Under the pieces are notes generated by a model. It ran no database searches, was not told where the DNA came from, and was given only the letters and a program-made list of their open reading frames with translations. Positions 1,425-53,203 of a stretch of 64,000 bases of DNA are shown piece by piece (the stretch's first letter is position 1; each line of letters opens with the position of its first letter). The stretch lies in NCBI RefSeq assembly GCF_050920415.1, contig NZ_CP169309.1. One strand, 5' to 3'. This stretch comes from Escherichia coli. GTDB taxonomy: Bacteria; Pseudomonadota; Gammaproteobacteria; Enterobacterales; Enterobacteriaceae. A program made the position numbers and the translations under genes.

Positions 1425-3223
1425 GTTACTTTGGCCTTAATCCAGTAAACCAGAATCAGCAGCTTGACGAAGCAGCATCAAATCCAGCTGGCTTTAACAG
1501 CGATGTTGGTTTTTTCGACAATGCTGTAGGAGCGGCATTGTCTGGTTTGTACTCCGGGCTGGTGGCAAAGCCAGATCAGTTGCTCTGGGCAGGGATGGAT
1601 AAAATCGTATCCCCGATTGCTCAGTTTGTTAACGAAAACACCTCGCTCAATGACACTTCAGTTTCATACATTGCCGAGCAGAGAAAACTAGCAGAGCAGC
1701 AGGTTAAGCGGCTGACGCCTGATGCCGCGACAACCGGAACCGCCGGGCAGGTTCTTTATGGGTTGTTCGATATGGGCGGGCAGGCTGTTATCGGTACAAC
1801 GCTCGGTGGTCCGGCCGGAGGTGCTGCGGCGGTAACTTCGCTACAGGGTTTTTCTGAGTTTGAACGGCTGACAGCACAGGGTGTTGATTTCAGGACGGCG
1901 CAGGAAGCGGGATTAGTGCAGGGTATTACTGCTGGTGCCGGAACAATGATCCCTATGAGCCTCGGGTTACGTGCTGGTGGTGCGCTGGCGGAAGGTGTGG
2001 CGGCTCAGCTTGCGCGGACGGGTGAAAGTTCAGTGCGACGCGCCGCAGCAACAGCAGTAAGTGCAACGCCAGATATTGCCTATGCCGCAGGTACAAATAT
2101 TGCGTTCGGTATGGCACAGCGTGGGCTTACTGCAAAAACGCTTCGTGATGGTGGCTATAGCGAAATGGCTAACCAGTATGATGTGTTGGATCGACAGGCA
2201 ATTGCTATTGATGCTGTTCTTGGGGTGGCGTTTGGTGGTGTCGGCAGATTTATTAACTCTCGCGGCGAGTCTACAAGCGCACCAAATTTTTCACCAGTTG
2301 ATATTGATGCTGCACTGGCGGCGAATGCCGCTCATCATGCTGAAATTGATATTGCGCCCGGCGTGCCGATCAACGTGCTTTCGCGCAATTCTCACATTCA
2401 GGCTCTGCGAAAAGCTATGTCTGATGTTAGCCAGGGGAGACCTGTAGACGTTGCCAGCATTGTTGAGTCTGCATCTTTCAGTGAAATTCCTGGGCGCAAG
2501 AGTCTGCTGTCTCAGGCAGTTAATGAGGCTCTGTCATCTGTAGATGATGGAGTAACGGCGCGCGCTATAGAAAATCGGTTGCTTGAAGAACAGGCCGCGC
2601 AGCTTTTGCCGCGTGGAGATAGACAGGTTTACCAGTCTGAAATCGCTAATAGCCAACGAATTATTGAAAATCTCACTGAACAGCGTGCACAAATTCTTGC
2701 AGAAGAGCCAACCGGTAGCGGTAAAGCTTTGTCTCGTGCTCGATCAGATAAACAGGCCAGACTTCGTGATATTGATCAACGAATCCGGCAGGCACAAGAA
2801 CGCCTGGAATTTTCCCGTAACGCGTTGGCACCGCACGAGCCTGGAGGTCAGTTTTTTGAAGCTCGAGCAGAACTGGCACGGCGACAGCAGGCAGAAAGTG
2901 AACTTAATGCTCAGGCTGTTTCATTCTATAAAACAGCAGAGGTCAGGACGCCAGACGAAGTAGCTCCTTTTGAGCCCGGTAAGATATTGCAACAGACAGA
3001 ACAAAAAATGATGGCAGATCCGGCAGGAGATATTGATCTGCGTATAGCTGAAGACTCGCTGCTTGAATCACCTGACATGATAATCACCGTGCTGGATGAT
3101 GATGGTAATCCACAATCGCGCAGTGCGCGTGAAGTACTGGATGAAGCTAACAGGGAAAGTGAGCAGGCAATACAGGATTCCAGCCTGTTTGATGTTGCTG
3201 TGGCGTGTTTCTTGAGAGGTTAA
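1421..3223 (+). CDS. Phage virion internal/ejection-type protein (600 aa)
   Basis: 600-aa ORF translationally coupled to the upstream ORF (ATGA overlap); Gly/Ala-rich segments and a coiled-coil-like Q/R/E-rich region. No catalytic motif recognised by eye. Confidence 0.5.
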   Translation: MSYFGLNPVNQNQQLDEAASNPAGFNSDVGFFDNAVGAALSGLYSGLVAKPDQLLWAGMDKIVSPIAQFVNENTSLNDTSVSYIAEQRKLAEQQVKRLTPDAATTGTAGQVLYGLFDMGGQAVIGTTLGGPAGGAAAVTSLQGFSEFERLTAQGVDFRTAQEAGLVQGITAGAGTMIPMSLGLRAGGALAEGVAAQLARTGESSVRRAAATAVSATPDIAYAAGTNIAFGMAQRGLTAKTLRDGGYSEMANQYDVLDRQAIAIDAVLGVAFGGVGRFINSRGESTSAPNFSPVDIDAALAANAAHHAEIDIAPGVPINVLSRNSHIQALRKAMSDVSQGRPVDVASIVESASFSEIPGRKSLLSQAVNEALSSVDDGVTARAIENRLLEEQAAQLLPRGDRQVYQSEIANSQRIIENLTEQRAQILAEEPTGSGKALSRARSDKQARLRDIDQRIRQAQERLEFSRNALAPHEPGGQFFEARAELARRQQAESELNAQAVSFYKTAEVRTPDEVAPFEPGKILQQTEQKMMADPAGDIDLRIAEDSLLESPDMIITVLDDDGNPQSRSAREVLDEANRESEQAIQDSSLFDVAVACFLRG

Positions 3224-3786
3224 ATTAAATGAGACAGGAATGTATACAAGCGGTCCAGCAGGCGGCGCAGCGCACGTTAACGGCGCGAGAAATACAGAAC
3301 ATTGAAGACCGCATTTATCGCAATATGCGCTCCATTGCTCGTGATGACCCTATGTCGTGGCGACAACTTTCCGAGTCAGAGCGGCTGTATCGTGCAGCAC
3401 AATTGGCATCTGAAGAATTACAGCGAGAAGCGGCATTAAAGAAACGTCGTGTGGCTCTCACTATAGCTGCACGTCAGAGATTGGATAAATTTATCAATAG
3501 CTATCAAGGGGCTGATGGGAAACTTGGCGCTCTTAACCGTACTATAGCTTTTAATGCAGACGGTAAATCTAATTTCCTCTCTGTTGAATCCAGAACAAAA
3601 GCCACCCGTGATTATGCATTGAGTCAATTGCAGGAGGCATTCGAAGCAGTTGATCCTCGCTTTTTTGGTCTGTTTGAAGATGAAGCGGGCGTACGTAGAC
3701 TGGCCCCCTGAATCTCCAGACAACCAGTATCACTTAAATAAGTGATAGTCTTAATACTAGTTTTTAGACTAGTCATTGGAGAACAG

Positions 3787-4152
3787 ATGATTGATGTCTT
3801 AGGGCCGGAGAAACGCAGACGGCGTACCACACAGGAAAAGATCGCAATTGTTCAGCAGAGCTTTGAACCGGGGATGACGGTCTCCCTCGTTGCCCGGCAA
3901 CATGGTGTAGCAGCCAGCCAGTTATTTCTCTGGCGTAAGCAATACCAGGAAGGAAGTCTTACTGCTGTCGCCGCCGGAGAACAGGTTGTTCCTGCCTCTG
4001 AACTTGCTGCCGCCATGAAGCAGATTAAAGAACTCCAGCGCCTGCTCGGCAAGAAAACGATGGAAAATGAACTCCTCAAAGAAGCCGTTGAATATGGACG
4101 GGCAAAAAAGTGGATAGCGCACGCGCCCTTATTGCCCGGGGATGGGGAGTAA
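3787..4152 (+). CDS. insC: IS2 transposase OrfA (InsC)
   Basis: Translation [41 protein letters not shown]... recognised as IS2 InsC; ORF track starts 15 codons upstream at an ATG within the left inverted repeat. Confidence 0.9.
4104..4110 (+). other. A6G slippery heptamer, putative -1 programmed frameshift site joining insC and insD
   Basis: AAAAAAG at the 3' end of insC inside the insC/insD overlap; IS3-family elements produce the OrfAB transposase by -1 frameshifting at such sites. Confidence 0.55.
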
Positions 4153-5015
4153 GCTTAGTCAGCCGTTGTCTCCGGGTGTCGCGTGCGCAGTTGCACGTCA
4201 TTCTCAGACGAACCGATGACTGGATGGATGGCCGCCGCAGTCGTCACACTGATGATACGGATGTGCTTCTCCGTATACACCATGTTATCGGAGAGCTGCC
4301 CACGTATGGTTATCGTCGGGTATGGGCGCTGCTTCGCAGACAGGCAGAACTTGATGGTATGCCTGCGATCAATGCCAAACGTGTTTACCGGATCATGCGC
4401 CAGAATGCGCTGTTGCTTGAGCGAAAACCTGCTGTACCGCCATCGAAACGGGCACATACAGGCAGAGTGGCCGTGAAAGAAAGCAATCAGCGATGGTGCT
4501 CTGACGGGTTCGAGTTCTGCTGTGATAACGGAGAGAGACTGCGTGTCACGTTCGCGCTGGACTGCTGTGATCGTGAGGCACTGCACTGGGCGGTGACTAC
4601 TGGCGGCTTCAACAGTGAAACAGTACAGGACGTCATGCTGGGAGCGGTGGAACGCCGCTTCGGCAACGATCTTCCGTCGTCTCCAGTGGAGTGGCTGACG
4701 GATAATGGTTCATGCTACCGGGCTAATGAAACACGCCAGTTCGCCCGGATGTTGGGACTTGAACCGAAGAACACGGCGGTGCGGAGTCCGGAGAGTAACG
4801 GAATAGCAGAGAGCTTCGTGAAAACGATAAAGCGTGACTACATCAGTATCATGCCCAAACCAGACGGGTTAACGGCAGCAAAGAACCTTGCAGAGGCGTT
4901 CGAGCATTATAACGAATGGCATCCGCATAGTGCGCTGGGTTATCGCTCGCCACGGGAATATCTGCGGCAGCGGGCTTGTAATGGGTTAAGTGATAACAGA
5001 TGTCTGGAAATATAG
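4110..5015 (+). CDS. insD: IS2 transposase OrfB (InsD), DDE integrase-like
   Basis: 301-aa ORF overlapping insC in the -1 frame; sequence ...[50 protein letters not shown]... recognised as IS2 InsD. Confidence 0.9.
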
Positions 5016-7048
5016 GGGCAAATCCAGTACGTGACCTGGTATATGAAATGCGGGGGCAAAATACTGGCAATGCTAAAGCAAGAAAAGGTGCTAAGGCGTG
5101 GAGAGAAGTTACAGAGCTGCTGCGCCGCCGGTTTAATGATGCTGGTGGGGACATTGGCTATCTCGAAAACTGGGGGATCCCTCAACATCATTCTATGGAA
5201 AAGGTTGGGGCGGTATCAAAGGATAAGTGGGTTAGCGATGTTATAGGTAAGCTGGATCGCAAATATTATATCCGAGCCGATGGACAACTGATGAACGATG
5301 CCGAGTTGTCTGCATTTCTTGGAGAGGCTTATAACACGATCGCTACTGGTGGGCTGAATAAGCTTACTGATACCGGAATGCGAATTTCCGGCGCACGTGC
5401 TAACCGTGGTAATGCATCACGACAGATACATTTCAAAGATGCAGATTCCTATCTGCAATATCAGCAACTTTATGGCGATCGCTCTCTATGGGAAATCATG
5501 GTCGGTCACCTGGAAGGTATCAGTAAAGATATTGCACTGGTGGAAACATATGGCCCAAACCCCGATCATGTTTTCCGCTCTCTTCTTGATCAGGTGAAGG
5601 CAGAAACGGCAACAGCTAACCCGAGTAAAACCGGTAAAGTCGAGCGGCTGGCGAACAACACAGAGAATCTGTACAACTTTATTTCCGGAAAGACACAGCC
5701 TGTAGCAAATCCGCACATCGCGCGATGGTCTGACAATATCCGCAACTGGCTGGTTGCCAGCAGACTCGGATCCGCGTTGCTGTCATCGTTCTCTGATCTT
5801 GGAACCATGTATCTGTCTGCGAAGGTGACCAACCTTCCAATGAACCAGTTATTCCGCAACCAGCTTGAAGCTATGGACCCAACGAACCGTACTGAGCTTG
5901 CGCGGGCGCGCCGCGCTGGTCTGGCGATGGAATCTCTACTTGGCAGCGTTAACCGCTGGGCGATGGATAATATGGGGCCGTCAGTGTCTCGTTGGGCTGC
6001 AACGGCGGTAATGCGTGCCAGTGGGCTTACAGCATGGTCAGATGCGCACAAGCGCGCCTATGGCGTAACCATGATGGGAAGCCTGGGAGAAGTAGTGTCA
6101 CGGACACCAGACCTTCGTAGCCTCGATGACTCTGATTTTCGTATCCTGAAAAGCAAAGGGATTACTGACACAGACTGGAGCGTATGGAAGCTGGCGCAAC
6201 AGGAGGACTGGGGGAACGGTAATAATACGATGCTGACACCGGAAAGCATTATGCGTATCCCTGATTCAGCAGTTAAACATCTTGGTGAGCCTGAACGCGT
6301 GAAATTTGAGGCAATGCGTAAACTGCTCGGTGCCGTAACTGAAGAAGTTGATATGGCTGTTATTACACCGGGAGCACGTGAGCAACTGATAACCGGTTCT
6401 GGTATTCAGCGTGGAACATGGAAAGGTGAATTAACGAGAAGTGTTTTCCTGTTTAAATCGTTCCCTATCTCGGTGGTTATGCGTCACTGGTCACGCGCTA
6501 TGGGTATGCCGTCTGCTGGTGGGCGTGCGGCATATATTGCGACGTTTATTGCCAGCACGACCATTCTTGGCGCTTTGTCTCAGCAACTTAACGACCTTGC
6601 GTCTGGTCGTAATCATCGCGAGATGACAGGAGAAGATGCTGCTAAATTTTGGCTTGGTGCTCTACTGAAAGGTGGTGGTCTTGGCCTTTACGGTGACTTT
6701 TTATTGTCAGATCACACTAGGTACGGAAGCGGCGCGCTGGCGTCGATGCTTGGCCCGGTAGCTGGTCTGGTTGATGACGTAGTGAAGATTGCTCAGGGCA
6801 TACCGTTAAATGCTGTGGAAGGGAAGAATGAGCAGACTGGTGGTGATCTGGTTAAGCTGGGGAAGGGGCTGATGCCAGGTGCGAATCTCTGGTACTTGAA
6901 GGCGGCTCTCGATCACATGATCTTTAACCAGATGCAGGAGTATTTTTCACCAGGCTATTTGCGTAAAATGGAGCAACGTTCGAAGAAAGAGTTTAACCAG
7001 ACATACTGGTGGCGACCACAGGATGTCACTCCGCAATAAGGATGAGAA

Positions 7049-7189
7049 ATGATTGCTTTTATTCTTGTTGTGTTTGCGCTTGTTGCACTTGGCGTTATGA
7101 ACCGTAAATGTATCATTGACGATGGCGAATTTGCTGTTGCAGTTATTTTGATATTATCTGGTGTAGCAGGATACATAGGCTTGTCATAA
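7049..7189 (+). CDS. Hypothetical small hydrophobic peptide (46 aa, two predicted hydrophobic segments)
   Basis: ATG at 7049 preceded by AAGGATGAG 4-10 nt upstream; translation MIAFILVVFALVALGVMNRKCIIDDGEFAVAVILILSGVAGYIGLS; stop TAA 7187-7189; followed by palindromes and a terminator. Too short for the ORF track. Confidence 0.35.
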   Translation: MIAFILVVFALVALGVMNRKCIIDDGEFAVAVILILSGVAGYIGLS

Positions 7190-7209
7190 CGTGAGTGTGA
7201 CATGTCACA

Positions 7210-7233
7210 GGCCGCTTTCGCGGCCTTTTCTTT
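7210..7233 (+). terminator. Rho-independent terminator (GGCCGC-TTTC-GCGGCC followed by TTTTCTTT)
   Basis: 6-bp GC stem with 4-nt loop followed by a T-run on the + strand; preceded by the perfect palindrome TGTGACATGTCACA (7196-7209). Overlaps the stop codon of the convergent minus-strand ORF. Confidence 0.5.
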
Positions 7234-7489
7234 ATGTGGTTTGTTTTCGTAGTTGTTCGGCACAATAGTCGAGATGTGTTTGCAGATCCTGCATAGACAT
7301 CTGTGAGCTGGTGACGTAGTTAATCAGTGCAGTCAGTTCGGCAAGTGGGCCATCGACATTAAATCCATCCTTATCGAGATCCCGGAGTAATTTCATCAAG
7401 TGCGATCCTTCCACCAGTGACCTGACGCCTCCCGGCGTGTGAATCCTTTCGGTAAATCCCTCTTCCAGTGGATAGTGATACTGCTGCAT
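7232..7489 (-). CDS. Hypothetical small acidic protein (85 aa from the ATG at 7489) behind a LexA box
   Basis: ORF track gives 7232..7507 from a TTG; a better start is the ATG at 7489 (MQQYHYPLEEGF...) with GGAGAAG 7 nt upstream. A strong LexA box lies about 20 nt upstream. No family recognised by eye. Confidence 0.5.
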   Translation of the reverse strand: MQQYHYPLEEGFTERIHTPGGVRSLVEGSHLMKLLRDLDKDGFNVDGPLAELTALINYVTSSQMSMQDLQTHLDYCAEQLRKQTT

Positions 7490-7508
7490 CTTATCTTCTC
7501 CATGCAAT

Positions 7509-7528
7509 AACTGTATGTTTATACAGTA
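7509..7528. promoter_or_regulatory. LexA (SOS) box AACTGTATGTTTATACAGTA
   Basis: CTGT-N8-ACAG with an AT-rich spacer, 17/20 match to the E. coli consensus TACTGTATATATATACAGTA; sits in the divergent region between the small minus-strand ORF and the tailspike gene. Confidence 0.6.
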
Positions 7529-7684
7529 TCAAATAATTTGTTTGCTATCCAGCACGTTTTGCGAATCACCTGAAAGGTAATATCTGCTCACATTAACACT
7601 CTTTCCATCCATATATGGTTTTTCAGGTAATAGAATAACCAGATATGCGGCGCAACGGGTGCTGCGACTATCTGGAGATTTAAC

Positions 7685-9940
7685 ATGACGGTCTCAACCG
7701 AAGTTGACCACAACGAATACACAGGCAATGGCGTTACGACTTCATTCCCTTATACCTTTAGGGTTTTCAAGGAATCTGATCTGGTAGTGCAGGTGGTTGA
7801 CCTTGACGAAAATATCGCTGTGCTGGCTCTGGATACTGATTACACTGTCACTGGGGCTGGTGGATATAACGGCGGTAATGTAATTCTGTCGAAGGCGTTA
7901 GCTAACGGTTACCAGATTTCTATATCACGAGAGCTCCCGGTTACGCAGGAAACTGATTTGCGTAATCAGGGGAAGTTCTTTGCAGAAGTGCATGAGGATG
8001 CTTTTGATAAGCTAACGATGCTGATCCAGCAGGTTCGAAGTTGGTTTAGCTTGGCGCTGCGCAAGCCGTCATTCGTGGCAAATTATTATAACGCGCTGAA
8101 CAACTATATTCGAAACCTGAAAGACCCGGTAAACCCGCAGGATGCATCCACAAAGAATTATGTGGACAGTACGGTTTTATCGAATATCGACCATACAATC
8201 CGTGTTCCTGATTCTTATATCGATCCGCTGCCACCTCTCGCTCAACTTGAAGGAAGCATAATCGGCATCGCCAACGGTAAGCCCGTTCCGTTCCCTGTGC
8301 CTTCAGGAACGGCGGCTGACGTATTCAACCAGTTGGCCAGCAGCGCTGACGGGAAAGGTGATGCGCTGATAACAGTGAAGCAGCCTTACCAGGGGGCAAT
8401 TTCTCTTTCGCAGCATATAAAAAATGCACAAGCCATTAGTGTTGTTGATTTTGGAGCGACAATTGATGGAACGCTTCACCCTTTAAGCGAGATATTTTCA
8501 ACACTATCAGCTGCTCAGATGGTATATCCATTTGTTTCATCTCTATCTCAATCTGTTGATTATGCTGCGCTTCAGTCCGCATGTAACACGGGAAAAACAG
8601 TGCTTATTCCAAAGGGAACTGGTTACTATAATTCAACTATTTTTCTGAAAAACTCCGTTAGGATTGTTGGAGAGGGAACTGATACAATAAATAGAGCGCA
8701 ATCATTTATGTCTATTGTTGGTAATATTTCAGCCTTTGCTTTAGATCAAGGTGATTCCCTATCGACAAAAATGATTCAGATTTTTATTGATGGTCTTTAT
8801 ATTTTCTATGATCCAGGAACCACACCAACGAATCCTGAAAATGATGGTGGGAAAATTGCATTTAATTTCTACTCGACAATTCCAAATTCAACAAGCTTGG
8901 AAATGTCTGAAATTAAAAACTGTACAGTTCATGGTGCATGGTCATGCTTTAATGATCAGACTGGCACATACTTGACAAAACTTACGAATGTGTGGGCCAG
9001 AAACTGCCATAATGGTTTTACAAAAGGAACTGGCACTACCATTCTGATGGAAAGATGTTATACATCTGGATGTATATCACCATATCAGTTTGGTTCTGTC
9101 TTTGCAGCTACAATGATTAACTGTGCCATGGATGGATCAAATATTTCGTTAAACGCAGGTTCGCTTGGTGGGGCTGGCGTTCATGTTCTTAACACACATA
9201 GTTTTAACATTATTGGTTTTGATGCGGAGGGTAACACCATCTCTACAGATGGTTATGGAGAGGCAGCACTATTCCATTTCGAAAATAGTAGTGGTGGCAT
9301 TTCTGGCCTGACTGCACATCAGAACAGCATGCGAAGTGTTGCGCCAAGTGATGCTGGTGTAGTTTCCTACATCAGGGCGTCAGGTAGCAGCGATGTTAAA
9401 ATTGAGTCATCAGAAGATGATTTATCTGACACCAACACAGTTGCATATACTGGGTCTGGGTATCCCATCATGCTACATGCAACTGACACAGCTAAAATAA
9501 GCGTCTTTAATAGCAGATTCAGGGCGACTACCACTGGTACCCCTGTCTTAAGTACGCTAAGTACTGGTGATGTATCATGGTATGACTGCCCTAAAAAAAC
9601 AGGACTTATCGTAGATGGTTATTCACAAATAACATCTAAGGAAGGATTGCAAACATCATGCTTCTATACCAGTAAAGGCTCTACTGCTGTTGCTGAAAAT
9701 ACTCCGACAACACTTTTCTCTCTACCAGATTCGCAAGGTACTTACATTATTAGCGTATGGGTGGCTGGAAGCGGAGAAAATTACGCATCTACACAACTGG
9801 CAATGTATGATGGAGATAAGCTAATTCTTGTTGCGTTAAAAATAGCAGCATTTCTTAGTTTTTCAGCAACAGGGAGAATTGTAACCATTACAAGCCAGGT
9901 GGCAGGCACTTTAAACTGGACTTACACTAAAATAGGTTGA
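7685..9940 (+). CDS. Phage tailspike / tail fibre (751 aa), probable O-polysaccharide-specific receptor-binding protein
   Basis: N-terminus MTVSTEVDHNEYTGNGVTTSFPYTFRVF... has the Y-x-G-x-G...F...F signature of podovirus tail-fibre/tailspike particle-binding domains; from memory it resembles epsilon15/phiV10-type tailspikes (unverified). The C-terminal two thirds are visibly AT-rich and Ser/Thr/Asn/Gly-rich, consistent with a beta-helical receptor-binding domain. Confidence 0.75.
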   Translation: MTVSTEVDHNEYTGNGVTTSFPYTFRVFKESDLVVQVVDLDENIAVLALDTDYTVTGAGGYNGGNVILSKALANGYQISISRELPVTQETDLRNQGKFFAEVHEDAFDKLTMLIQQVRSWFSLALRKPSFVANYYNALNNYIRNLKDPVNPQDASTKNYVDSTVLSNIDHTIRVPDSYIDPLPPLAQLEGSIIGIANGKPVPFPVPSGTAADVFNQLASSADGKGDALITVKQPYQGAISLSQHIKNAQAISVVDFGATIDGTLHPLSEIFSTLSAAQMVYPFVSSLSQSVDYAALQSACNTGKTVLIPKGTGYYNSTIFLKNSVRIVGEGTDTINRAQSFMSIVGNISAFALDQGDSLSTKMIQIFIDGLYIFYDPGTTPTNPENDGGKIAFNFYSTIPNSTSLEMSEIKNCTVHGAWSCFNDQTGTYLTKLTNVWARNCHNGFTKGTGTTILMERCYTSGCISPYQFGSVFAATMINCAMDGSNISLNAGSLGGAGVHVLNTHSFNIIGFDAEGNTISTDGYGEAALFHFENSSGGISGLTAHQNSMRSVAPSDAGVVSYIRASGSSDVKIESSEDDLSDTNTVAYTGSGYPIMLHATDTAKISVFNSRFRATTTGTPVLSTLSTGDVSWYDCPKKTGLIVDGYSQITSKEGLQTSCFYTSKGSTAVAENTPTTLFSLPDSQGTYIISVWVAGSGENYASTQLAMYDGDKLILVALKIAAFLSFSATGRIVTITSQVAGTLNWTYTKIG

Positions 9941-9975
9941 TGTTATGCGTGGGGAGCAATGCTCCCCATCATCAA

Positions 9976-11835
9976 TTAAAAAATAAATGGCTTGTCATTT
10001 TTTAATTTTTTCCCAAACTCCCTTGAGCCTTCTAGAGTGAAATGACTATTATCAAAGTAAAGATAATCACCTTTAGTAGAAAGGATGTCACAATTCATTG
10101 ACTTTCCGCACTGCTCGGCAAGCGTATCTATGTATTTATACGAATGCTGGTTGCTACCAAGATAGCCTTTTATCGTATTGTTAATTTCAACTCTACTATT
10201 GTCATAATACTTTTTAGAGTATTTATTTATCCCATCAACTGTGTTTACGCCAGATTTAAAAGCAGACTTAATTATTTCCATTGGCTGTGCCGTAAACTTC
10301 ATCTTAGGCCCAAATACAATAACTTCTCCTTTAGTCCTCTCCTGTATTTTGCCTATAGAGTAAAGCATCCCGAACAGATCGCCAACGCCATAATCATCAT
10401 GAAGGATTATAATGTTAGCTTCAGCTATGGCTGGAGATGAGATTACGTCATTGAATATTTTTTTGCACTTTTCTACATAGGGCATGTCGTTTGGTGTATA
10501 ACCAAAGTTTGAACATAAGTTTGTAGTTCTTATATAAGTTATATCACCCTTCATCCCATTTTCAGTAAGTGCATAAGTCAGATCTATGCCATGAGAATTA
10601 CCGATTATTACTATTTTTTTGTCACCTGTCTTCGGTACAGGGTGAGGCTTGTCTCCATCAACCCAATACCTGTTCATTTGTTCTTTTAGCTGTTCGGACG
10701 TCATTGTGGCAAACGAAAACCTTGATGGAATTCCAGATAGCAATAGTACAGCGAAGCACAAACCAACTACACCACCTACAGGTAGCACGATTGAAGTTAA
10801 TTCATTCAAGGACCTGCCGTTTTTAAATTTTGAAAGTGCCTTTCTTGAAGGGTTTTCAATTAAATAAAATGATGCGGCACCAATAAGAATTGATAAGGCA
10901 ACACCTGATACTGTATAAACCATATCATCCATCTTATTCATTGACATATATACAACTATGGGCCAGTGAACCAGATATACCGAGTATGAAATTTTCCCAA
11001 CCCATTGAGATAATGCATTATCAAGTAATAGGTTATCTTTACATCCAAGATAAATGACAAAGAAAGTAGAAACGACTGGTATTAAGGCAAGATACCCAGG
11101 CCACTTCATTAAGCTGTTAAGCAAGACTATCCCCGATACTGCAAAGGCTATGGCAATCCATCTAAATACAGCAGTGCGTTTTGAATTTTGTATAGTAGGA
11201 AGAAGGTAGGCAAGGCCGCCAGCCAGCATCTCCCAAGCTCTGCTTGACAGAAGATAAAATGCAGCGCCCTGATTATTATAAGAAAGATACACTGAGGCAG
11301 TAAATGATATAATTGCAAGGATGGCAACAACATACCTTATATGCTTAGCGCCCAATAGCTTTGCAATCACCATCATTATGATTGGATATACCATGTAAAA
11401 CTGCCACTCTACAGAAAGCGACCATGTATGAAGAAGCCATTTCTGCTTTGATGCAGTATCAAAATAATCAATGCTATGGTAATACTCAACGTTTGAGAAA
11501 AATAAAAGGCTACTTCTTACGTGTTGAGCCAGGTATTCATATTCAGAAGGTAAAAGAATGAAGTAACCAACTATCAGAACAGCAACTGAAACTACAGTTA
11601 AAGCAGGTATAATTCTTCTTGCCCTATCAAGATAAAATCCTAACAGTGAAAAGTTTCCATTAGATATCTTTGTGTAAATTATTCCAGTCATCAGATACCC
11701 TGATATAACAAAGAATATATCTACGCCTGAAAATCCACCAGAGAACCCTTTGACTCCGAAGTGATAAAGGACAACTGCCATAACAGCAATAGCCCTAAGC
11801 CCGCCTATATCTGTTCTGTATTTTAAAGAAGACAT
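9976..11835 (-). CDS. Membrane acyltransferase-3 family protein with C-terminal SGNH-like domain; probable O-antigen acetyltransferase (OafA/Oac-like)
   Basis: 619 aa; N-terminal R-x10-H motif (RTDIGGLRAIAVMAVVLYH) and about 10 hydrophobic helices typical of acyltransferase-3; C-terminal soluble domain with a GNSH block. Strongly AT-rich gene, convergent with the tailspike. Confidence 0.8.
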   Translation of the reverse strand: MSSLKYRTDIGGLRAIAVMAVVLYHFGVKGFSGGFSGVDIFFVISGYLMTGIIYTKISNGNFSLLGFYLDRARRIIPALTVVSVAVLIVGYFILLPSEYEYLAQHVRSSLLFFSNVEYYHSIDYFDTASKQKWLLHTWSLSVEWQFYMVYPIIMMVIAKLLGAKHIRYVVAILAIISFTASVYLSYNNQGAAFYLLSSRAWEMLAGGLAYLLPTIQNSKRTAVFRWIAIAFAVSGIVLLNSLMKWPGYLALIPVVSTFFVIYLGCKDNLLLDNALSQWVGKISYSVYLVHWPIVVYMSMNKMDDMVYTVSGVALSILIGAASFYLIENPSRKALSKFKNGRSLNELTSIVLPVGGVVGLCFAVLLLSGIPSRFSFATMTSEQLKEQMNRYWVDGDKPHPVPKTGDKKIVIIGNSHGIDLTYALTENGMKGDITYIRTTNLCSNFGYTPNDMPYVEKCKKIFNDVISSPAIAEANIIILHDDYGVGDLFGMLYSIGKIQERTKGEVIVFGPKMKFTAQPMEIIKSAFKSGVNTVDGINKYSKKYYDNSRVEINNTIKGYLGSNQHSYKYIDTLAEQCGKSMNCDILSTKGDYLYFDNSHFTLEGSREFGKKLKNDKPFIF

Positions 11836-11982
11836 AATCGCTATCGTTTTGAGTAAGATGCATTAATGATATCACCTTTAGGGTAATTTCGTTAAGAGTT
11901 ATCCGATCAAATTTAATCCACATATGGTTTATTGTGTATGATGAACTCACCAACTAAGGGGGTTCTTTATGCACAATAAACG

Positions 11983-12396
11983 GTGGTCACTATGGCGCAT
12001 GTGCTGACAACAGAGTCAGTAAATCAGGGGTTAAGCCTGACTGCACTGGCGTCCGTGTTCGTTGGTATACCGCCTGAGGTGGCTTTAGGTGCTCTTGCTG
12101 GTGCGGTAATTTTTGTTACCTCAGCGGTTGAGTATCCGATAAAGCGTAGGTTGCTCCTGGCGCTCCTAAGCTTCCTCTGCGGCGTTCTCTTCTATAAAGC
12201 GACAGCTTCCATTCTGATTGGCTTTGCCAGCCTGATACCAACGATTACGCAGGACTCTTTTGAGAAGGGCATTGTGTATTCCGCCGGGGCATTCGTGTCT
12301 GCAATCGTCGCTGTTCGCATTGGCATCTGGCTGTATCACCGTTCTGAAAATCCGCGCGACATGATCCCGGGGAGAAAAGACGATGACCAGTCCTGA
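11983..12396 (+). CDS. Putative holin (137 aa multi-span membrane protein)
   Basis: First gene of a + strand cluster ending in endolysin and Rz/Rz1; several hydrophobic helices and a charged C-terminus; two closely spaced in-frame Met codons (MVTMAHV). Holin call is positional. Confidence 0.5.
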   Translation: MVTMAHVLTTESVNQGLSLTALASVFVGIPPEVALGALAGAVIFVTSAVEYPIKRRLLLALLSFLCGVLFYKATASILIGFASLIPTITQDSFEKGIVYSAGAFVSAIVAVRIGIWLYHRSENPRDMIPGRKDDDQS

Positions 12397-12676
12397 TCTG
12401 CTTCTCATCCTTAACGCCGCTATCTGCGGTGGCATTGCAATCCGAGTGCTTCTGTTCCGCCGTGACGGGTCACGTCACCGCTGGTGGGGTGGGTGGCTCG
12501 CCTATCTGCTGATCGTCGTGGCAGCCAGCGTACCTATCCGGACTTTCTACGGGTACTACGTCAGCGCCGACTGGTCAGAAGTCATCATCAAAGCCGTGTT
12601 CCTGGCTGCGCTCATCAAGACAAAAGGGAACGTGGTGCAAATTTTCAAGATAACGAGGTCCCAGCATGGACATTAA
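12383..12676 (+). CDS. Putative second holin/antiholin-like membrane protein (97 aa)
   Basis: Overlaps the end of the previous ORF and the start of the endolysin gene; two or three hydrophobic segments; basic C-terminus. Confidence 0.45.
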   Translation: MTSPDLLLILNAAICGGIAIRVLLFRRDGSRHRWWGGWLAYLLIVVAASVPIRTFYGYYVSADWSEVIIKAVFLAALIKTKGNVVQIFKITRSQHGH

Positions 12677-13295
12677 CCAATTCCAGCGTGCAGCTGGCAT
12701 CAGTGAGGTGCTGGCCGCGCGCTGGTACCTGCATATCACCGCAGCCATGAAAGAGTTTGGCATCGAGCAACCGCTGCACCAGGCGATGTTTATCGCGCAG
12801 GTGGGGCATGAGTCTACTGGTTTCACCCGGCTGCAGGAAAACTTCAACTACAGCGTTGCAGGGCTCGCAGGATTCGTCCGCGCCGGGCGACTTACTCAGG
12901 GTCAGGCCAACGCGCTGGGCCGCCGTGCTGGCGAGCCATCGTTACCGCTGGAGCGCCAGCGCGCGATCGCCAATCTGGCGTACAGCAAACGCATGGGGAA
13001 CAATGCCCCTGGTGATGGCTGGAATTACCGTGGCCGCGGACTTATCCAGATTACCGGTTTGAATAACTATCGTGATTGCGGAAACGTCCTGAAAGTGGAC
13101 CTGCTGGAGAATCCTGAACTGTTGGCGCAGGACGAATATGCGGCTCGTAGCGCGGCGTGGTTCTTCGCCAGCAAAGGATGCATGAAGTATACCGGCGATA
13201 TTGCACGTGTAACTCTGATTATCAATGGTGGCCGGAACGGCATCGACGACCGGCGCGCGCGGTACATCACTGCCAGTAAGGTGCTGGCGGTATGA
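12666..13295 (+). CDS. Endolysin, glycoside hydrolase family 19 (chitinase-like lysozyme)
   Basis: 209 aa; motif FIAQVGHESTGF...NYRGRGLIQITG typical of GH19-type phage endolysins; position between holin-like genes and Rz. Confidence 0.85.
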   Translation: MDINQFQRAAGISEVLAARWYLHITAAMKEFGIEQPLHQAMFIAQVGHESTGFTRLQENFNYSVAGLAGFVRAGRLTQGQANALGRRAGEPSLPLERQRAIANLAYSKRMGNNAPGDGWNYRGRGLIQITGLNNYRDCGNVLKVDLLENPELLAQDEYAARSAAWFFASKGCMKYTGDIARVTLIINGGRNGIDDRRARYITASKVLAV

Positions 13296-13774
13296 TCTGG
13301 GCATTCGCAAAAGCATACTGGAAACAGTTGCTTATCGTGGTGATGCTTGCTGTTCTGGTCATATCGGGAATTGTTTCCTGGAATGTACACGGCAGTCGTC
13401 AGTACGATGCCGGGTATGCGCAGGCGAAGGAAGACCGCAAAGCTGAAGATGAGATAGTTCGTCAGCACTACGAACAGGAGAAATCGATCAATGAACGTGA
13501 AGCGCAGCAGAGGATCGACCAGGCGCGCAATGATGCTCTTGATGCTGCCGCTCGCGCTGGCCGGTTGCAGCAACAACTCTTTGCCATCCGTGAGCAGCTC
13601 AGGCAGTATAACGCCATTGTCGGCGCTGGGACGTCAGCCGCAGACACCGGAGTTTTGCTTGCCGACGTGCTCAGCAAATCTCTCGAGAGAAACAGACAAC
13701 TGGCAGAGTATGCTGACCGGGCAGCCGAAGCCGGAAGAGTCTGCGAAAAACAATACGACACCCTGACCAGATAG
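13292..13774 (+). CDS. Rz-like inner-membrane spanin (i-spanin)
   Basis: 160 aa; N-terminal transmembrane helix followed by coiled-coil-prone Q/R/E/A-rich periplasmic domain; ATGA overlap with the endolysin stop; contains an embedded +1 frame lipoprotein ORF. Confidence 0.75.
   Translation: MIWAFAKAYWKQLLIVVMLAVLVISGIVSWNVHGSRQYDAGYAQAKEDRKAEDEIVRQHYEQEKSINEREAQQRIDQARNDALDAAARAGRLQQQLFAIREQLRQYNAIVGAGTSAADTGVLLADVLSKSLERNRQLAEYADRAAEAGRVCEKQYDTLTR
13530..13766 (+). CDS. Rz1-like outer-membrane lipoprotein spanin (o-spanin), embedded in Rz
   Basis: +1 frame ORF wholly inside Rz; from ATG at 13530 the product MMLLMLPLALAGCS... has a signal peptide with lipobox LAGC and a Pro-rich mature part. 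ORF track starts it further upstream at 13491. Confidence 0.7.
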   Translation: MMLLMLPLALAGCSNNSLPSVSSSGSITPLSALGRQPQTPEFCLPTCSANLSRETDNWQSMLTGQPKPEESAKNNTTP

Positions 13775-13884
13775 CATGGCATTTTTCATGGTACTGATTT
13801 CCGGTGACGGTATATAAAACGGTACTAGAAAAATGAAGTTTTGGAAAAATGTTATCACTCAATTGGTTATGATTGTCGTAAATA

Positions 13885-13899
13885 ATTGAGTGGGAATGA
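13885..13899 (+). other. Putative prophage attR core / remnant of the guaA 3' end (ATT GAG TGG GAA TGA = IEWE-stop)
   Basis: 15-nt string encoding the C-terminal residues ...IEWE plus stop of GMP synthase as recalled for E. coli GuaA, in the orientation expected for guaA converging on yfgI; preceded in frame by a stop codon, so it is an isolated gene end, not a gene. Confidence 0.45.
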
Positions 13900-15567: not shown

Positions 15568-17042
15568 AAAAGGTTCCTTGAAGTATGTCCCACGCCGTGG
15601 ACGGTACTTACATTAAGGCACAACAGGACAAAATGGTCAATTCTTCGTTATGTAAAAAAGCGTCAGTGGATACATATTTTAATGTTATGGAAGTTAATTT
15701 AATTATTTACAATGATGATGTAATAATGATGAATTAACATGATAAACGTAATAATTCATTAATCAGGGTTATTTTGTTTGATATATATCAATTGGAACTT
15801 TCATATGACACTTAGAATCAATGCTCTCTATAGTGATGAATAATCATCATTCGAAGTCAGGTGGGATGCCTGTCTGAATACACCTCCTTCAGGATGTGGG
15901 GGATTCTGCTGAGCATCTATGAAACTGAATGCAACCTATATAAAAATACGTGATAAATGGTGGGGGCTTCCGCTGTTCCTGCCTTCTTTAATCTTGCCCA
16001 TTTTCGCCCATATTAATACTTTCGCGCATATTTCTTCCGGTGAGGTTTTTCTCTTTTACCTGCCTTTGGCACTGATGATCAGCATGATGATGTTTTTCAG
16101 CTGGGCGGCATTGCCAGGGATCGCCTTAGGGATTTTTGTTCGCAAATATGCAGAGCTGGGTATTTACGAAACGCTCTCATTAACAGCTAATTTTATTATC
16201 ATTATCATTCTCTGTTGGGGCGGTTACAGGGTCTTTACTCCCCGGCGTAACAACGTTTCACATGGTGATACCCGTTTAATTGCCCAGCGTATATTCTGGC
16301 AGATTGTATTTCCTGCAACGCTGTTTCTAATACTTTTCCAATTTGCTGCGTTTGTTGGATTACTGGCGAGCAGAGAAAATCTGGTCGGCGTCATGCCCTT
16401 TAACCTCGGGACCTTAATCAATTATCAGGCCTTGCTGGTAGGTAATCTGATTGGTGTCCCGCTGTGCTATTTCATCATTCGGGTGGTGCGAAATCCGTTT
16501 TATTTACGCAGCTATTATTCGCAATTAAAACAGCAAGTTGATGTCAAAGTCACCAAAAAAGAGTTCGCGCTCTGGCTACTGGCATTAGGTGCGTTGTTGT
16601 TGCTGTTATGCATGCCGTTAAATGAAAAAAGCACGATTTTCAGCACCAATTATACCTTGTCATTATTGCTACCCCTGATGATGTGGGGAGCCATGCGCTA
16701 TGGTTATAAGTTGATTTCGCTGCTCTGGGCGGTCGTGCTGATGATTAGCATCCACAGCTATCAAAATTACATTCCCATTTATCCTGGCTATACCACGCAA
16801 CTGACCATAACCTCCTCCAGTTATCTGGTATTCTCTTTTATTGTCAATTATATGGCTGTACTGGCAACCCGTCAGCGAGCGGTAGTCAGACGCATTCAGC
16901 GGCTTGCGTATGTGGACCCGGTGGTTCATCTGCCAAATGTTCGCGCCCTGAATCGCGCGTTGCGTGATGCCCCCTGGTCTGCGCTTTGTTATTTACGCAT
17001 TGAACCGCCCCGGGTTTCCTGGAGAGTGTTTTATCTGTGAAC

Positions 17043-17930
17043 TCAGGCTGCCAGATCATTGTTTCCGATGGAAGCATAATAAGCTTTTTCTGCTTCTGCC
17101 GGAGGAGTATGGCCCAGCCTTCCCAGCAATCGTCGATTGTTATACCAGTCCACCCACGTGAGTGTGGCCAGTTCCACTTCTGCACGGTTTTTCCAGCTCT
17201 TACGGTGTATTACCTCCGCTTTGTAAAGACCATTGATGCTCTCAGCCATCGCGTTGTCATACGAGTCGCCTGTACTCCCTGTTGATGCCAGCAGTTTTGC
17301 TTCTTTTAGTCGCTCCGTATAGGCCAGTGACACATACTGAGAGCCTTTATCGCTGTGATGGATGGTGCCAGACGGACGACGGGCCCACAACGCCTGCTCC
17401 AGCGCATCCAGCACGAATGTCGTTTCCATAGACGATGAGACCCGCCACCCCACGATGTATCCGGCAAACACATCAATGATGAACGCCACATAGACGAAGC
17501 CCTGCCATGTGCTGACGTAAGTAAAATCAGCCACCCACAGCTGGTCAGGACGTTCTGCCACGAACTGACGGTTTACGCGGTCACCTGTGGCAACGGTTTT
17601 CCGGCTGACGGTAGTGCGGACCTTTTTACCCCGGAGAACACCGGCAAGTCCCATAACCGCCATGAGGCGCGCCACTGTACATCTGGCCACCCTGATTCCT
17701 TCCCGTAACAACTGACGCCAGACTTTACGCACACCGTACACCTGATGATTTTCATCGTATACGCGCTGTATCTCTCTCTTCAGCCAGTCATCGCGCTGCG
17801 CACGGGCACTGCGTTTATCAGGATGATGCCGCTGCTGCTGACAATGGTAATACGTTGACGGGGCAATATGCAGTTCACTGCATACCGGTCCGACCCCGTA
17901 CTGCTCACGCAGCTTATCCAGCAGTGGCAT
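17043..17930 (-). CDS. IS3-family transposase OrfB (DDE integrase domain)
   Basis: 295 aa; ...HSDKGSQYVSLAYTERLKEAKLLASTGSTGDSYDNAMAESINGLYKAEVIHRKSW... typical IS3-family OrfB. Confidence 0.9.
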   Translation of the reverse strand: MPLLDKLREQYGVGPVCSELHIAPSTYYHCQQQRHHPDKRSARAQRDDWLKREIQRVYDENHQVYGVRKVWRQLLREGIRVARCTVARLMAVMGLAGVLRGKKVRTTVSRKTVATGDRVNRQFVAERPDQLWVADFTYVSTWQGFVYVAFIIDVFAGYIVGWRVSSSMETTFVLDALEQALWARRPSGTIHHSDKGSQYVSLAYTERLKEAKLLASTGSTGDSYDNAMAESINGLYKAEVIHRKSWKNRAEVELATLTWVDWYNNRRLLGRLGHTPPAEAEKAYYASIGNNDLAA

Positions 17931-18256
17931 TATTTTTTCCAGAGGCGGTCGAACTCCGCCTTCGCAAAATAAGCGGAAGCCTGGCGAAGGATATCGTTAC
18001 TGCGGCGCAGTTCACGATTTTCACGTTCCAGCTCTTTCAGACGCTGACGTTCAGCGGTGGTGAGCCCACCATCACCGCTCCCGGTATCCCTCTCATGCTG
18101 GCGAACCCAGACACGCAGAGTCTCTGGCGTACAGCCAATCTTTGGAGCAATGGAACAAATTGCCGCCCATTGTGAGTCATATTCGCCCTGACTTTCCAGA
18201 ACCATACGAACTGCGCGTTGACGGACTTCGGGGGAAAAACGAGTATTTTTAGTCAT
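17930..18256 (-). CDS. IS3-family transposase OrfA (helix-turn-helix, leucine zipper)
   Basis: 108 aa [57 protein letters not shown]...; ends in an A6 run (plus-strand T6 around 17933-17938) at the OrfA/OrfB junction, the likely frameshift window. Confidence 0.9.
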
Positions 18257-19480
18257 CCTGTTTACCTCTTTCTCAGGAAGTTTAGTCTCCAGGATTTCCG
18301 GGGCGGTTCACATCCCCGGCATGGAAATGCTGGTTAAGAACTATGGCATCATGCTACGGATTCAATACAAGCAAAAACTTTCTCACTGGCTGTCACCATT
18401 GCTGGAACCGGGTGAAGATGTTTATCAGCTTTCGGGTAACGATCTCGCGCTGCGACTGAATACAGAAGCGCACCAGGAGCGCATTACCGCACTGGATAGC
18501 CATCTCAAGCAATTTCGTTTCTTTTGGGATGGAATGCCGATGCAACCGCAGATTGGCGTCAGTTACTGCTATGTGCGCTCGCCAGTGAATCATATCTACT
18601 TACTGCTGGGAGAGCTAAATACGGTTGCTGAACTCTCCATCGTGACCAACGCCCCGGAAAATATGCAGCGTCGCGGGGCAATGTATTTGCAACGCGAATT
18701 GAAAGATAAAGTCGCGATGATGAATCGGCTACAGCAGGCGCTGGAACACAACCATTTTTTCCTGATGGCCCAGCCGATTACCGGTATGCGTGGTGATGTC
18801 TACCATGAGATCCTTCTGCGCATGAAAGGTGATAATGATGAACTGATCAGCCCCGACAGCTTCTTGCCGGTCGCGCACGAATTTGGTTTATCGTCGAGTA
18901 TCGACATGTGGGTCATTGAGCATACGCTGCAATTTATGGCTGAAAACAGAGCGAAGATGCCCGCTCACCGTTTTGCTATTAATCTGTCGCCAACCTCGGT
19001 ATGTCAGGCTCGTTTTCCATTTGAAGTCAGTCAGTTGCTGGCTAAATATCAAATTGAAGCGTGGCAACTTATTTTTGAAGTCACCGAAAGTAATGCTCTG
19101 ACCAATGTTAAGCAGGCGCAGATCACCTTGCAGCATCTTCAGGAATTAGGCTGCCAGATTGCGATTGATGATTTCGGAACCGGCTACGCCAGCTATGCAC
19201 GGCTTAAAAATGTGAATGCCGATCTGCTTAAAATTGACGGCAGTTTTATCCGCAATATTGTGTCAAATAGTCTGGATTATCAGATAGTGGCGTCGATTTG
19301 CCACCTGGCGCGAATGAAGAAAATGCTGGTAGTGGCAGAGTACGTTGAAAACGAAGAGATCCGCGAGGCGGTGCTCTCTTTGGGGATCGATTATATGCAG
19401 GGTTATCTTATTGGTAAGCCGCAACCGTTAATTGATACGCTGAATGAAATCGAACCCATTCGCGAAAGTGCCTGAATAAT

Positions 19481-19507
19481 GCGGGCCGACATTTCTTGTC
19501 GGCCCGC
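19481..19507. terminator. Bidirectional terminator hairpin between convergent pdeF and ppx (GCGGGCCGACA-TTTCT-TGTCGGCCCGC)
   Basis: 11-bp GC-rich perfect inverted repeat with 5-nt loop, 6 nt after the pdeF stop and just beyond the ppx stop. Confidence 0.55.
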
Positions 19508-19513
19508 AAAGCA

Positions 19514-23126
<3,613 letters not shown>

Positions 23127-53118: not shown

Positions 53119-53203
53119 GCCTGGTAGGCCTGATAAGACGCGTGAGCGTCGCATCAGGCATCGTTCACCATTGCCGGATGCGGCATTAACGCCTTATCCG
53201 GCC
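53119..53203. repeat. REP/BIME cluster (two inverted REP units)
   Basis: GCCTGATAAGACGCGTGAGCGTCGCATCAGGC and TGCCGGATGCGGCATTAACGCCTTATCCGGCC between convergent ypfH and ypfN. Confidence 0.55.

Follow-up and report, generated by a model that had tools for sequence, protein, structure and literature searches.

The pdeF (yfgF) gene in the window, a 64,000-nt stretch of Escherichia coli DNA, is interrupted in codon 361 by an IS629-type insertion sequence. An intact IS629 isoform has recently transposed into this codon, duplicating a CAT target, so that the full-length MASE1-GGDEF-EAL protein can no longer be made. Very probably, the outcome is plain inactivation, with the phosphodiesterase activity of PdeF lost, or nearly lost. 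IS629 is common in E. coli. Its disruption of genes is an ordinary outcome with good documentation (PMC9943667). An earlier annotation, hereafter the sequence-only reading, had recognized the split gene and had proposed that the severed EAL part could be expressed from the inserted element, a proposal that is weighed below against several other possible fates of the two fragments.

The element is 1310 bp long (17001-18310, delimited by full-length identity and inverted repeats), with its transposase encoded on the minus strand, and is flanked by a 3-bp target-site duplication, CAT, at 16998-17000 on the left and at 18311-18313 on the right; the length and the CAT repeats had both been correctly described by the sequence-only reading. 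The junctions between pdeF and the element read GTTATTTACGCAT/TGAACCGCC and GGCGGTTCA/CATCCCCGGCATGG. The terminal inverted repeats, recognized by their match to each other (IRR, 17001-17025; IRL, 18286-18310), begin with TGAACCGCCCCGG and agree at 13/13 terminal positions and at 22/25 positions overall. The window contains exactly two occurrences of the terminus, for 0.08 expected by chance, which, therefore, represent a genuine transposition footprint, rather than a chance pattern.

From the ORF list and the NCBIfam model NF033516 (IS3 family transposase), two overlapping reading frames were assigned on the minus strand: orfA (17930-18256, 108 aa), which matches the N-terminal part of the model, and orfB (17043-17930, 295 aa), the catalytic part of the DDE transposase, which scores 313.9 bits for a cutoff of 160. 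An ALIL pseudoknot, a stimulator of programmed -1 frameshifting, spans the orfA/orfB overlap on the same strand (17859-17975; Rfam RF01497, 120.9 bits for a gathering score of 50). In ISfinder practice, a copy is an isoform of a named element when the two share at least 95% nucleotide identity. Over all 1310 bp, the present copy is 97.2% identical to O157 Stx phage elements that carry the IS629 annotation (AJ304858 and AP012530, among other records with IS629 features). By its length, TG...CA repeats, short duplication, frameshifted orfA/orfB, DDE transposase, and identity of at least 95%, it thus qualifies, on sequence grounds, as an IS629 isoform; the IS629-like, IS3-family identification made previously is borne out by the transposase profile match and the 97.2% identity. 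Fully identical (100%) copies are known from a few E. coli of bovine and crow origin, and copies with 99.8% identity from strain MFDS1022581. The transposase reading frames are unbroken, and the intact copy is presumably active. Transposition in the IS3 family proceeds by copy-out/paste-in. The right flank resembles IRL (empirical p of about 0.04), which comes from a post hoc test, and a preference for IR-like targets is not claimed.

Removal of the element together with one CAT, i.e., joining 15919-17000 to 18314-19475, yields an ORF of 2244 nt (747 codons) whose only stop is terminal, exactly as predicted by the sequence-only reading. The alignment with an intact pdeF that it had recommended as a check was also conclusive: the reconstructed gene and the annotated, intact pdeF of strain MFDS1022581 (WP_000772752.1) differ at 0 nucleotides (2244/2244 identical). 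An assembly artefact was rejected, because the target duplication is perfect and the wild-type sequence is restored exactly. Positions 13885-64000 of the window are 99.996-100% identical to the same strain, which, combined with the unaltered reconstructed gene, indicates a very recent insertion event. Gene order is collinear with that of the annotated MFDS1022581 genome (yfgI-yfgH-yfgG-pdeF-ppx-ppk1), with pdeF located between yfgG and ppx. Because ppx, downstream, is convergent with pdeF, no neighbouring gene should be affected.

Pfam recognizes MASE1 (residues 15-320) and EAL (498-730) in PdeF, with no GGDEF match, and the region lying between these two domains aligns with the GGDEF domains of RbdA, MorA, and DosP. 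The reconstructed translation contains the SGNDL site, listed as the A-site of PdeF (PMC11327459). The predicted architecture is, consequently, that of a MASE1 membrane anchor, followed by a degenerate GGDEF domain (SGNDL) and an EAL domain. Codon 361 is situated 41 residues beyond MASE1, inside the degenerate GGDEF domain. At this point, the PdeF segment ALCYLRI/PGMEMLVKNYG (the slash marking the cut) aligns with ALMFLDLDQFKLVNDTCGH of RbdA (PA0861, structure 5xgb), which places the cut where strand beta1 ends and helix alpha1 begins. The insertion had been described as separating MASE1 from the GGDEF-like/EAL part; it does not respect this domain border, and falls within the GGDEF-like domain, after beta1. 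Both resulting ORFs exist as described, one encoding 373 aa (15919-17040) and the other 384 aa (18321-19475).

The 3' remainder of pdeF (18314-19475, plus strand; ORF list, Pfam, and alignment) contains the 384-aa ORF, which runs from an ATG at 18321 to the native stop. This ATG is the native Met364. It follows the last base of the element by 10 nt and the CAT by 7 nt, the distance of 8 nt given previously being incorrect. The encoded fragment comprises a complete EAL domain and an N-terminally truncated GGDEF-like domain with the SGNDL site, from which alpha0 and beta1 of the fold are missing, according to the alignment with solved structures. According to the sequence-only reading, an outward promoter at the end of the element, or within it, could drive synthesis of this fragment as a soluble, unregulated phosphodiesterase, devoid of its membrane domain, and c-di-GMP signalling would be rewired, rather than PdeF being simply abolished. 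The ORF is indeed open, with the catalytic motifs of the EAL domain in place, and isolated EAL domains can be stable; those of related proteins crystallise (8pps, 4rni, 4hu3, 4lj3), which argues against a silent 3' fragment. So does the precedent of truncated c-di-GMP enzymes derived from pseudogenes, as Shigella pseudogenes that have stops upstream still direct the synthesis of active truncated proteins, initiated internally (PMC11327459).

Nevertheless, the geometry of the insertion is unfavourable to such a promoter. The outward promoter P3R of IS3 is located at IRR and shares the reading direction of the transposase (PMC8860574), and the -35 element of IS911 sits in IRR, co-directional with the transposase (PMC9330008). 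The EAL fragment adjoins IRL, the left, orfA-side end, and its coding strand is the opposite of the one that encodes the transposase. Neither the end that it adjoins nor its orientation, therefore, suits the outward promoters described for IS3-family elements. Likewise, no outward promoter in IS629 was reported in the accessible parts of the literature searched, including PMC9330008 and PMC8860574.

Promoter scans point in the same direction, keeping in mind that consensus-based scans miss non-canonical promoters. A strict scan of the plus strand between 16209 and 19233 gave no match, while a lenient one gave a single 8/12 match, TTGACG-17-GAGTAT, at 18218-18246. This weak candidate is the only promoter sequence that can be offered in favour of IS-driven expression, and matches of such quality arise about six times per kb by chance. 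Only poor matches were obtained at the IRR end.

Translation of the 384-aa ORF would also be hampered. Shine-Dalgarno pairing ahead of the ATG at 18321 was estimated at -2.2 kcal/mol, to be compared with medians of -1.5 for a null of random ATGs and -6.0 for 33 genuine starts in the window. Weak pairing alone is no predictor of silence, since that of the native pdeF start is also weak (-1.9 kcal/mol). In addition, the end of the element and the adjoining, IR-like pdeF sequence are predicted, from folding energy, to form an RNA hairpin on the plus strand (18283-18343; minimum free energy of -23.2 kcal/mol, z-score of -2.13), which would be present in any transcript begun within the element and in which the ATGs at 18321 and 18327 are both buried, the former in the 3' arm. 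With the promoter scans, the end and orientation of the element, the Shine-Dalgarno pairing, the hairpin, and the truncated GGDEF-like fold all unsupportive, expression of a membrane-free phosphodiesterase from an IS-derived promoter appears very improbable. More generally, finding an ORF beside an IS does not show that the element drives its expression, unless both the end that it adjoins and its orientation fit a known outward promoter of the element.

Small amounts of the EAL fragment could, in principle, be obtained in another way, by read-through from the FNR-dependent promoter of pdeF or from spurious antisense starts within the element, followed by initiation at Met364 or a later Met, leaving a residual, delocalised anaerobic activity. 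The native promoter is intact, the plus strand of the element contains only two weak terminator-like hairpins, and internal initiation has been demonstrated for Shigella dgc pseudogenes (PMC11327459). Nevertheless, the transcript would have to cross 1,280 nt of untranslated RNA between the 5' ORF and Met364, and would oppose the transposase gene. In this interval, 40% of the 78-nt windows are C-rich and G-poor, versus 12.5% across the whole window, a criterion of Rho action that is heuristic only. Rho-dependent polarity would, thus, be expected over these 1.28 kb of C-rich RNA separating the native promoter from the 3' fragment. The transcript would then meet the same weak Shine-Dalgarno sequence and sequestered start codon, and its product the same truncated GGDEF-like domain, which makes read-through an improbable source of such residual activity. 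Under plain inactivation, the 3' fragment, which has no identifiable promoter of its own and a poorly placed start codon, would most likely be silent or expressed in traces only.

The situation of the 5' fragment is different. The promoter motifs published for E. coli yfgF, an FNR box and a -10 element (PMC3718329), were located in the window, on the plus strand (15778-15818), as the FNR box TTGATATATATCAA at 15778-15791 and the -10 element TAGAAT at 15813-15818. The gene, therefore, appears to keep its FNR-dependent class II promoter, untouched by the insertion. The 5' fragment itself (15919-17040, plus strand; ORF list, Pfam, and reconstruction) encodes 373 aa, composed of 361 native codons and 12 codons provided by the element (EPPRVSWRVFYL), followed by a TGA stop. 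It holds the complete MASE1 domain, with the KKE motif at 213-215, and the start of the GGDEF-like domain. Because the FNR-dependent promoter and the start codon are kept, this fragment should still be transcribed under anaerobiosis and translated, and a MASE1-only membrane protein may still be made.

Such a protein could be the relevant product of the allele, retaining under FNR control the modulation of the aspartate response that is independent of c-di-GMP, in which case the insertion would be a separation-of-function allele, and not a null. The whole of MASE1 and the KKE motif required for this effect are present, the effect of YfgF MASE1 is independent of EAL activity and c-di-GMP (PMC3718329), and stand-alone MASE1 proteins occur in nature. 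Nevertheless, the published effect was seen only under sustained aerobic expression from a plasmid, mainly in Salmonella, and with no MASE1-only construct (PMC3718329). The fragment also ends with 41 residues of a broken domain and 12 foreign residues, which makes degradation possible. A function of this kind is, consequently, conceivable, though rather unlikely. A natural domain fission can even be imagined, in which the anaerobic, FNR-driven MASE1 protein maintains the c-di-GMP-independent signalling of YfgF, and a soluble EAL phosphodiesterase, no longer under membrane control, is supplied by read-through or a cryptic promoter, the allele being perhaps reversible by IEE-promoted excision of IS629; this combination is very unlikely.

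The survey for this insertion elsewhere, also recommended by the sequence-only reading, was run on 5,426 complete E. coli genomes, by megablast of the whole 3557-bp region. The codon-361 IS629 allele was found in none of them (0/5,426). Eight places showed coverage of at least 80%, none of which corresponds to the same allele: strain F2_81 carries an insertion sequence elsewhere in pdeF, strain PE164 carries one next to pdeF, and, at the remaining places, an IS3 transposase is listed with yfgH/yfgG among the genes upstream. In metagenome contigs, the exact 26-nt junction was not found (0 matches). For the 373-aa product, a Logan look-up returned no exact match, a weak negative, as short-read assemblies break at IS copies. 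The look-up of the 384-aa sequence returned one contig (ERR10854182), which was rejected as another occurrence of the insertion, being a W353* point mutant with no insertion sequence. The abstracts returned by a literature search contained nothing relevant on pdeF/yfgF pseudogenes, and PdeF is not mentioned in PMC10459773. From these sequence comparisons, the insertion is recent and private to one isolate.

These searches also bear on whether the loss of PdeF has been selected in this lineage, its inactivation being adaptive, rather than a neutral accident. The W353* mutation affects the same pdeF allele (Logan run ERR10854182), an IS3-family element is inserted near nt 1815 of the gene in F2_81, and pdeF has an internal stop in PE164. 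These independent lesions are only a handful for thousands of genomes with an intact pdeF. Moreover, the look-up behind W353* is limited to lesions a short distance upstream of Met364, and the nearness of this mutation to the IS site is, thus, an ascertainment effect. Selection for PdeF loss, therefore, seems doubtful.

Recent inactivation by IS629, the preferred reading, closely resembles the cases described in EHEC/STEC (PMC9943667), which involve the same element (97.2% identity, 1310 bp), again with frameshifted orfA/orfB and a short target duplication, and in which a chromosomal gene is left in two fragments that differ between close strains. The target differs, as codon 361 of pdeF was unseen in the 5,426 complete genomes, and, compared with the O157 copy, the present isoform is a rarer variant, 100% identical copies being limited to a few bovine/crow isolates. 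In F2_81 (NZ_CP043542.1), pdeF is split by an IS3-family element whose size is the same and whose transposase is likewise antisense to the gene, and the RefSeq annotation gives two partial pseudogene pieces. Nevertheless, the two insertions are independent: that of F2_81 lies at about nt 1815, within the EAL domain, in a pdeF allele that is about 96-98% identical.

In the degenerate diguanylate cyclase pseudogenes of Shigella flexneri (PMC11327459), the lesion is also upstream of the catalytic domain, with an in-frame Met just after it. However, these are point nonsense mutations, which leave the promoter and mRNA continuous and the catalytic domain whole, whereas, in the present gene, a 1.3-kb antisense element intervenes and the adjacent GGDEF-like domain is cut. 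The true analogue of the Shigella pseudogenes is the W353* allele of ERR10854182, not the one in the present window. IS3, through P3R, and IS911 and IS2, through a -35 element in IRR, activate adjacent genes by the mechanism on which the sequence-only reading relied (PMC8860574, PMC9330008). These documented elements read out of the right end. In the present case, the right end faces the 5' fragment in antisense, and the EAL fragment is at the left end.

Overall, the insertion is one more strain-specific IS629 knockout of a non-essential c-di-GMP phosphodiesterase, with little import beyond strain annotation, and could serve as a typing marker for the present isolate. Published work on YfgF includes no truncations addressing the function of MASE1 or EAL alone (PMC3718329). 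The IS629 allele and the W353* allele, in near-identical backgrounds, constitute a natural pair for testing MASE1-only and EAL-only function.

The c-di-GMP phosphodiesterase gene pdeF (yfgF) is split by a 1310-bp element (17001-18310), with its transposase on the minus strand and CAT immediately on either side (16998-17000 and 18311-18313). The inverted repeats at its ends begin TGAACCGCCCCGG and match at 13/13 positions there and at 22/25 overall; the 64-kb window holds exactly two copies of the 13-nt terminus, versus 0.08 expected by chance. The ORF listing of 15700-19700 gives two plus-strand pdeF ORFs, of 373 aa (15919-17040) and 384 aa (18321-19475), and two overlapping minus-strand IS ORFs, of 108 aa (18256-17930) and 295 aa (17930-17043). 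Joining 15919-17000 to 18314-19475 yields 2244 nt, that is, 747 codons with a single terminal stop. Across all 2244 positions, the joined sequence is identical to the uninterrupted pdeF annotated in E. coli MFDS1022581 (WP_000772752.1), and in both sequences the gene is flanked by yfgG and the convergent ppx. As the element, its CAT repeats, the reconstruction and both ORFs are all reproduced from the window, the sequence-only reading described the insertion correctly, apart from two details: the distance of an ATG from the IS end and the position of the cut relative to the protein domains.

Full-length comparison of the element with annotated IS629 features of O157 Stx phages gives 97.2% identity. 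Its orfB scores 313.9 bits, above the NCBIfam IS3-family equivalog cutoff of 160, and Rfam places an ALIL frameshift pseudoknot at 17859-17975 (minus strand). These features identify an intact IS629 isoform, as the IS629-like, IS3-family assignment had proposed. A few E. coli from cattle and crows carry copies with 100% identity, and 99.8% identical ones lie on the chromosome and a plasmid of MFDS1022581. The pdeF flank to the right of the insertion (18311-18333, CATCCCCGGCATGGAAATGCTGG) resembles the left, orfA-side inverted repeat (IRL) of IS629 itself (CCCCGG...AAATCCTGG), with p ~0.04 in a post hoc local-alignment test against all other window positions, which recalls the IS3-family preference for IR-like targets.

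Pfam assigns residues 15-320 of PdeF to the MASE1 membrane anchor and 498-730 to the EAL domain. The region between them carries SGNDL, which PMC11327459 gives as PdeF's degenerate A-site, and aligns with the GGDEF domains of RbdA (PA0861), MorA and DosP, GGDEF-EAL proteins of solved structure that served as alignment partners. The IS had been thought to separate MASE1 from the GGDEF-like/EAL part, but it enters after base 2 of codon 361, 41 residues past the Pfam MASE1 envelope, inside the GGDEF-like fold rather than between domains. Residues ...ALCYLRI and PGMEMLVKNYG... on either side of the cut align with ...ALMFLDLDQFKLVNDTCGH... of RbdA (5xgb); in the established GGDEF fold, strand beta1 ends and helix alpha1 begins at this point. 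In the MorA and DosP alignments, the homologous GGDEF-EAL module starts at about PdeF residue 308-322, so the 384-aa fragment would have a complete EAL domain behind a first domain devoid of alpha0 and core strand beta1. Its ATG (18321), the native Met364 codon and the first in-frame start 3' of the lesion, lies 10 nt past the last IS base, not 8 nt from the IS end.

An IS-derived outward promoter had been proposed to drive this fragment. With the transposase on the minus strand, the end touching the EAL fragment is IRL, and pdeF reads on the strand opposite the transposase. The outward-reading elements documented for the IS3 family (PMC8860574, PMC9330008) are located at the end opposite to IRL; in IS911 and its relatives, the right inverted repeat (IRR) carries an outward -35 whose partner, an inward -10 within IRL, is joined to it solely in the circle junction (PMC9330008). 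As IRR faces the 5' fragment, any activity there would give antisense RNA over the MASE1-coding part, not EAL sense RNA, and promoter matches at this end are poor too. A plus-strand consensus scan of the whole IS and of the sequence before 18321 found no promoter-like site; a lenient scan returned one 8/12 match (TTGACG-17-GAGTAT, 18218-18246), of a quality seen ~6 times per kb in the window. Separately, the MASE1-coding part of pdeF holds an overlapping minus-strand promoter-like pair (16840-16875; CTGACG-17-TATAAT, 10/12, and TTGCCA-16-GACAAT, 9/12), which is native sequence unrelated to the IS.

Anti-Shine-Dalgarno pairing before ATG 18321 amounts to -2.2 kcal/mol (medians: -6.0 for 33 annotated window starts versus -1.5 for all ATG triplets), although this is not decisive alone, since the native start of pdeF pairs weakly too (-1.9). 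Partial complementarity between the IS terminus and the pdeF flank gives a predicted hairpin (-23.2 kcal/mol, z -2.13) with both ATG 18321 and ATG 18327 in its 3' arm. In read-through from the native promoter, ribosomes halt at 17038-17040, leaving 1,280 nt untranslated. C-rich, G-poor 78-nt windows make up 40% of this interval versus 12.5% window-wide, which by this heuristic makes Rho-dependent termination likely there. The EAL fragment thus lies at the wrong IS end and on the wrong strand for the outward promoters documented in the family, and each scan or start-site test able to favour it failed; silence of the EAL fragment is not thereby proven.

The nearest precedent is offered by Shigella dgc pseudogenes, in which active truncated enzymes arise from internal starts despite upstream nonsense codons (PMC11327459). 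There, the mRNA runs unbroken through a whole catalytic domain, and the true analogue is not the IS allele but that of Logan run ERR10854182, the one record of the 384-aa product, on a contig without the IS. At 4912-7155 of this contig, the pdeF allele is the same except for one substitution, G1058A, which creates W353*; it was thus inactivated independently, 8 codons upstream of the IS site, and its background is near-identical. As the look-up recovers only lesions just upstream of Met364, the proximity of the two lesions reflects ascertainment and is no evidence for a hotspot.

Without the IS, window positions 13885-64000 are 99.996-100% identical to MFDS1022581 (2 mismatches in 45.7 kb), which dates the insertion after a very recent common ancestor. 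None of the complete E. coli genomes surveyed (0/5,426) carries this pdeF::IS629 allele, and the 26-nt junction has no match in metagenome contigs. There is no record of the chimeric 373-aa product either, a weak negative, as assemblies from short reads tend to be interrupted at IS copies. Among the matches of at least 80% coverage inspected, the IS lies elsewhere in pdeF (F2_81) or adjoins it (PE164); the remaining ones have an IS3 transposase among the upstream neighbours. F2_81 (NZ_CP043542.1) has an IS3-family insertion near pdeF nt 1815, inside the EAL domain, and PE164 (NZ_CP114128.1) combines a pdeF internal stop with an IS3-family element upstream of yfgG.

Positions 1-13899 form the right arm of an epsilon15/phiV10-like prophage with virion genes, a tailspike (7685-9940), an O-antigen acetylase (9976-11835, minus strand) and holin/endolysin/Rz genes (12383-13774). 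It adjoins the last 15 nt of guaA (ATTGAGTGGGAATGA, 13885-13899). In the otherwise near-identical MFDS1022581 and ERR10854182, guaA is directly followed by yfgI, making the prophage another recent difference. A second IS (region 3691-5031), an IS2 of 1331 bp (3696-5026; ends TAGACTGGCC...GGGGCAAATCCA, 5-bp duplication GTACG), interrupts a virion structural gene of the prophage (phrog_684), leaving fragments at 3229-3711 and 5000-7039. Rfam also detects naRNA4 (RF02564, nucleoid-associated noncoding RNA 4) at 53127-53203 on the minus strand (89 bits versus a gathering score of 59.5).

The published yfgF FNR box (TTGATATATATCAA, 15778-15791) and -10 element (TAGAAT, 15813-15818) are unbroken, as are the start codon, the entire MASE1 domain and the KKE motif (213-215), so a predicted 373-aa membrane protein, with 361 native residues and 12 encoded by the IS, should still be made. 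KKE is required for YfgF to affect the aspartate response independently of c-di-GMP, an effect that needed sustained plasmid expression and was studied with constructs that did not include MASE1 only (PMC3718329).

By inactivating genes, IS629 is a textbook cause of strain polymorphism in EHEC/STEC, and IEE-promoted excision can reverse such inactivation (PMC9943667; PMC9330008). The pdeF::IS629 insertion is real, recent and isolate-specific. A neomorphic soluble phosphodiesterase made from the EAL fragment is improbable and has no support in the sequence evidence. Most probably, PdeF has lost its phosphodiesterase activity, and a MASE1-only protein may be left over; pdeF::IS629 is a new allele, produced by a well-known kind of event, gene disruption by an IS.
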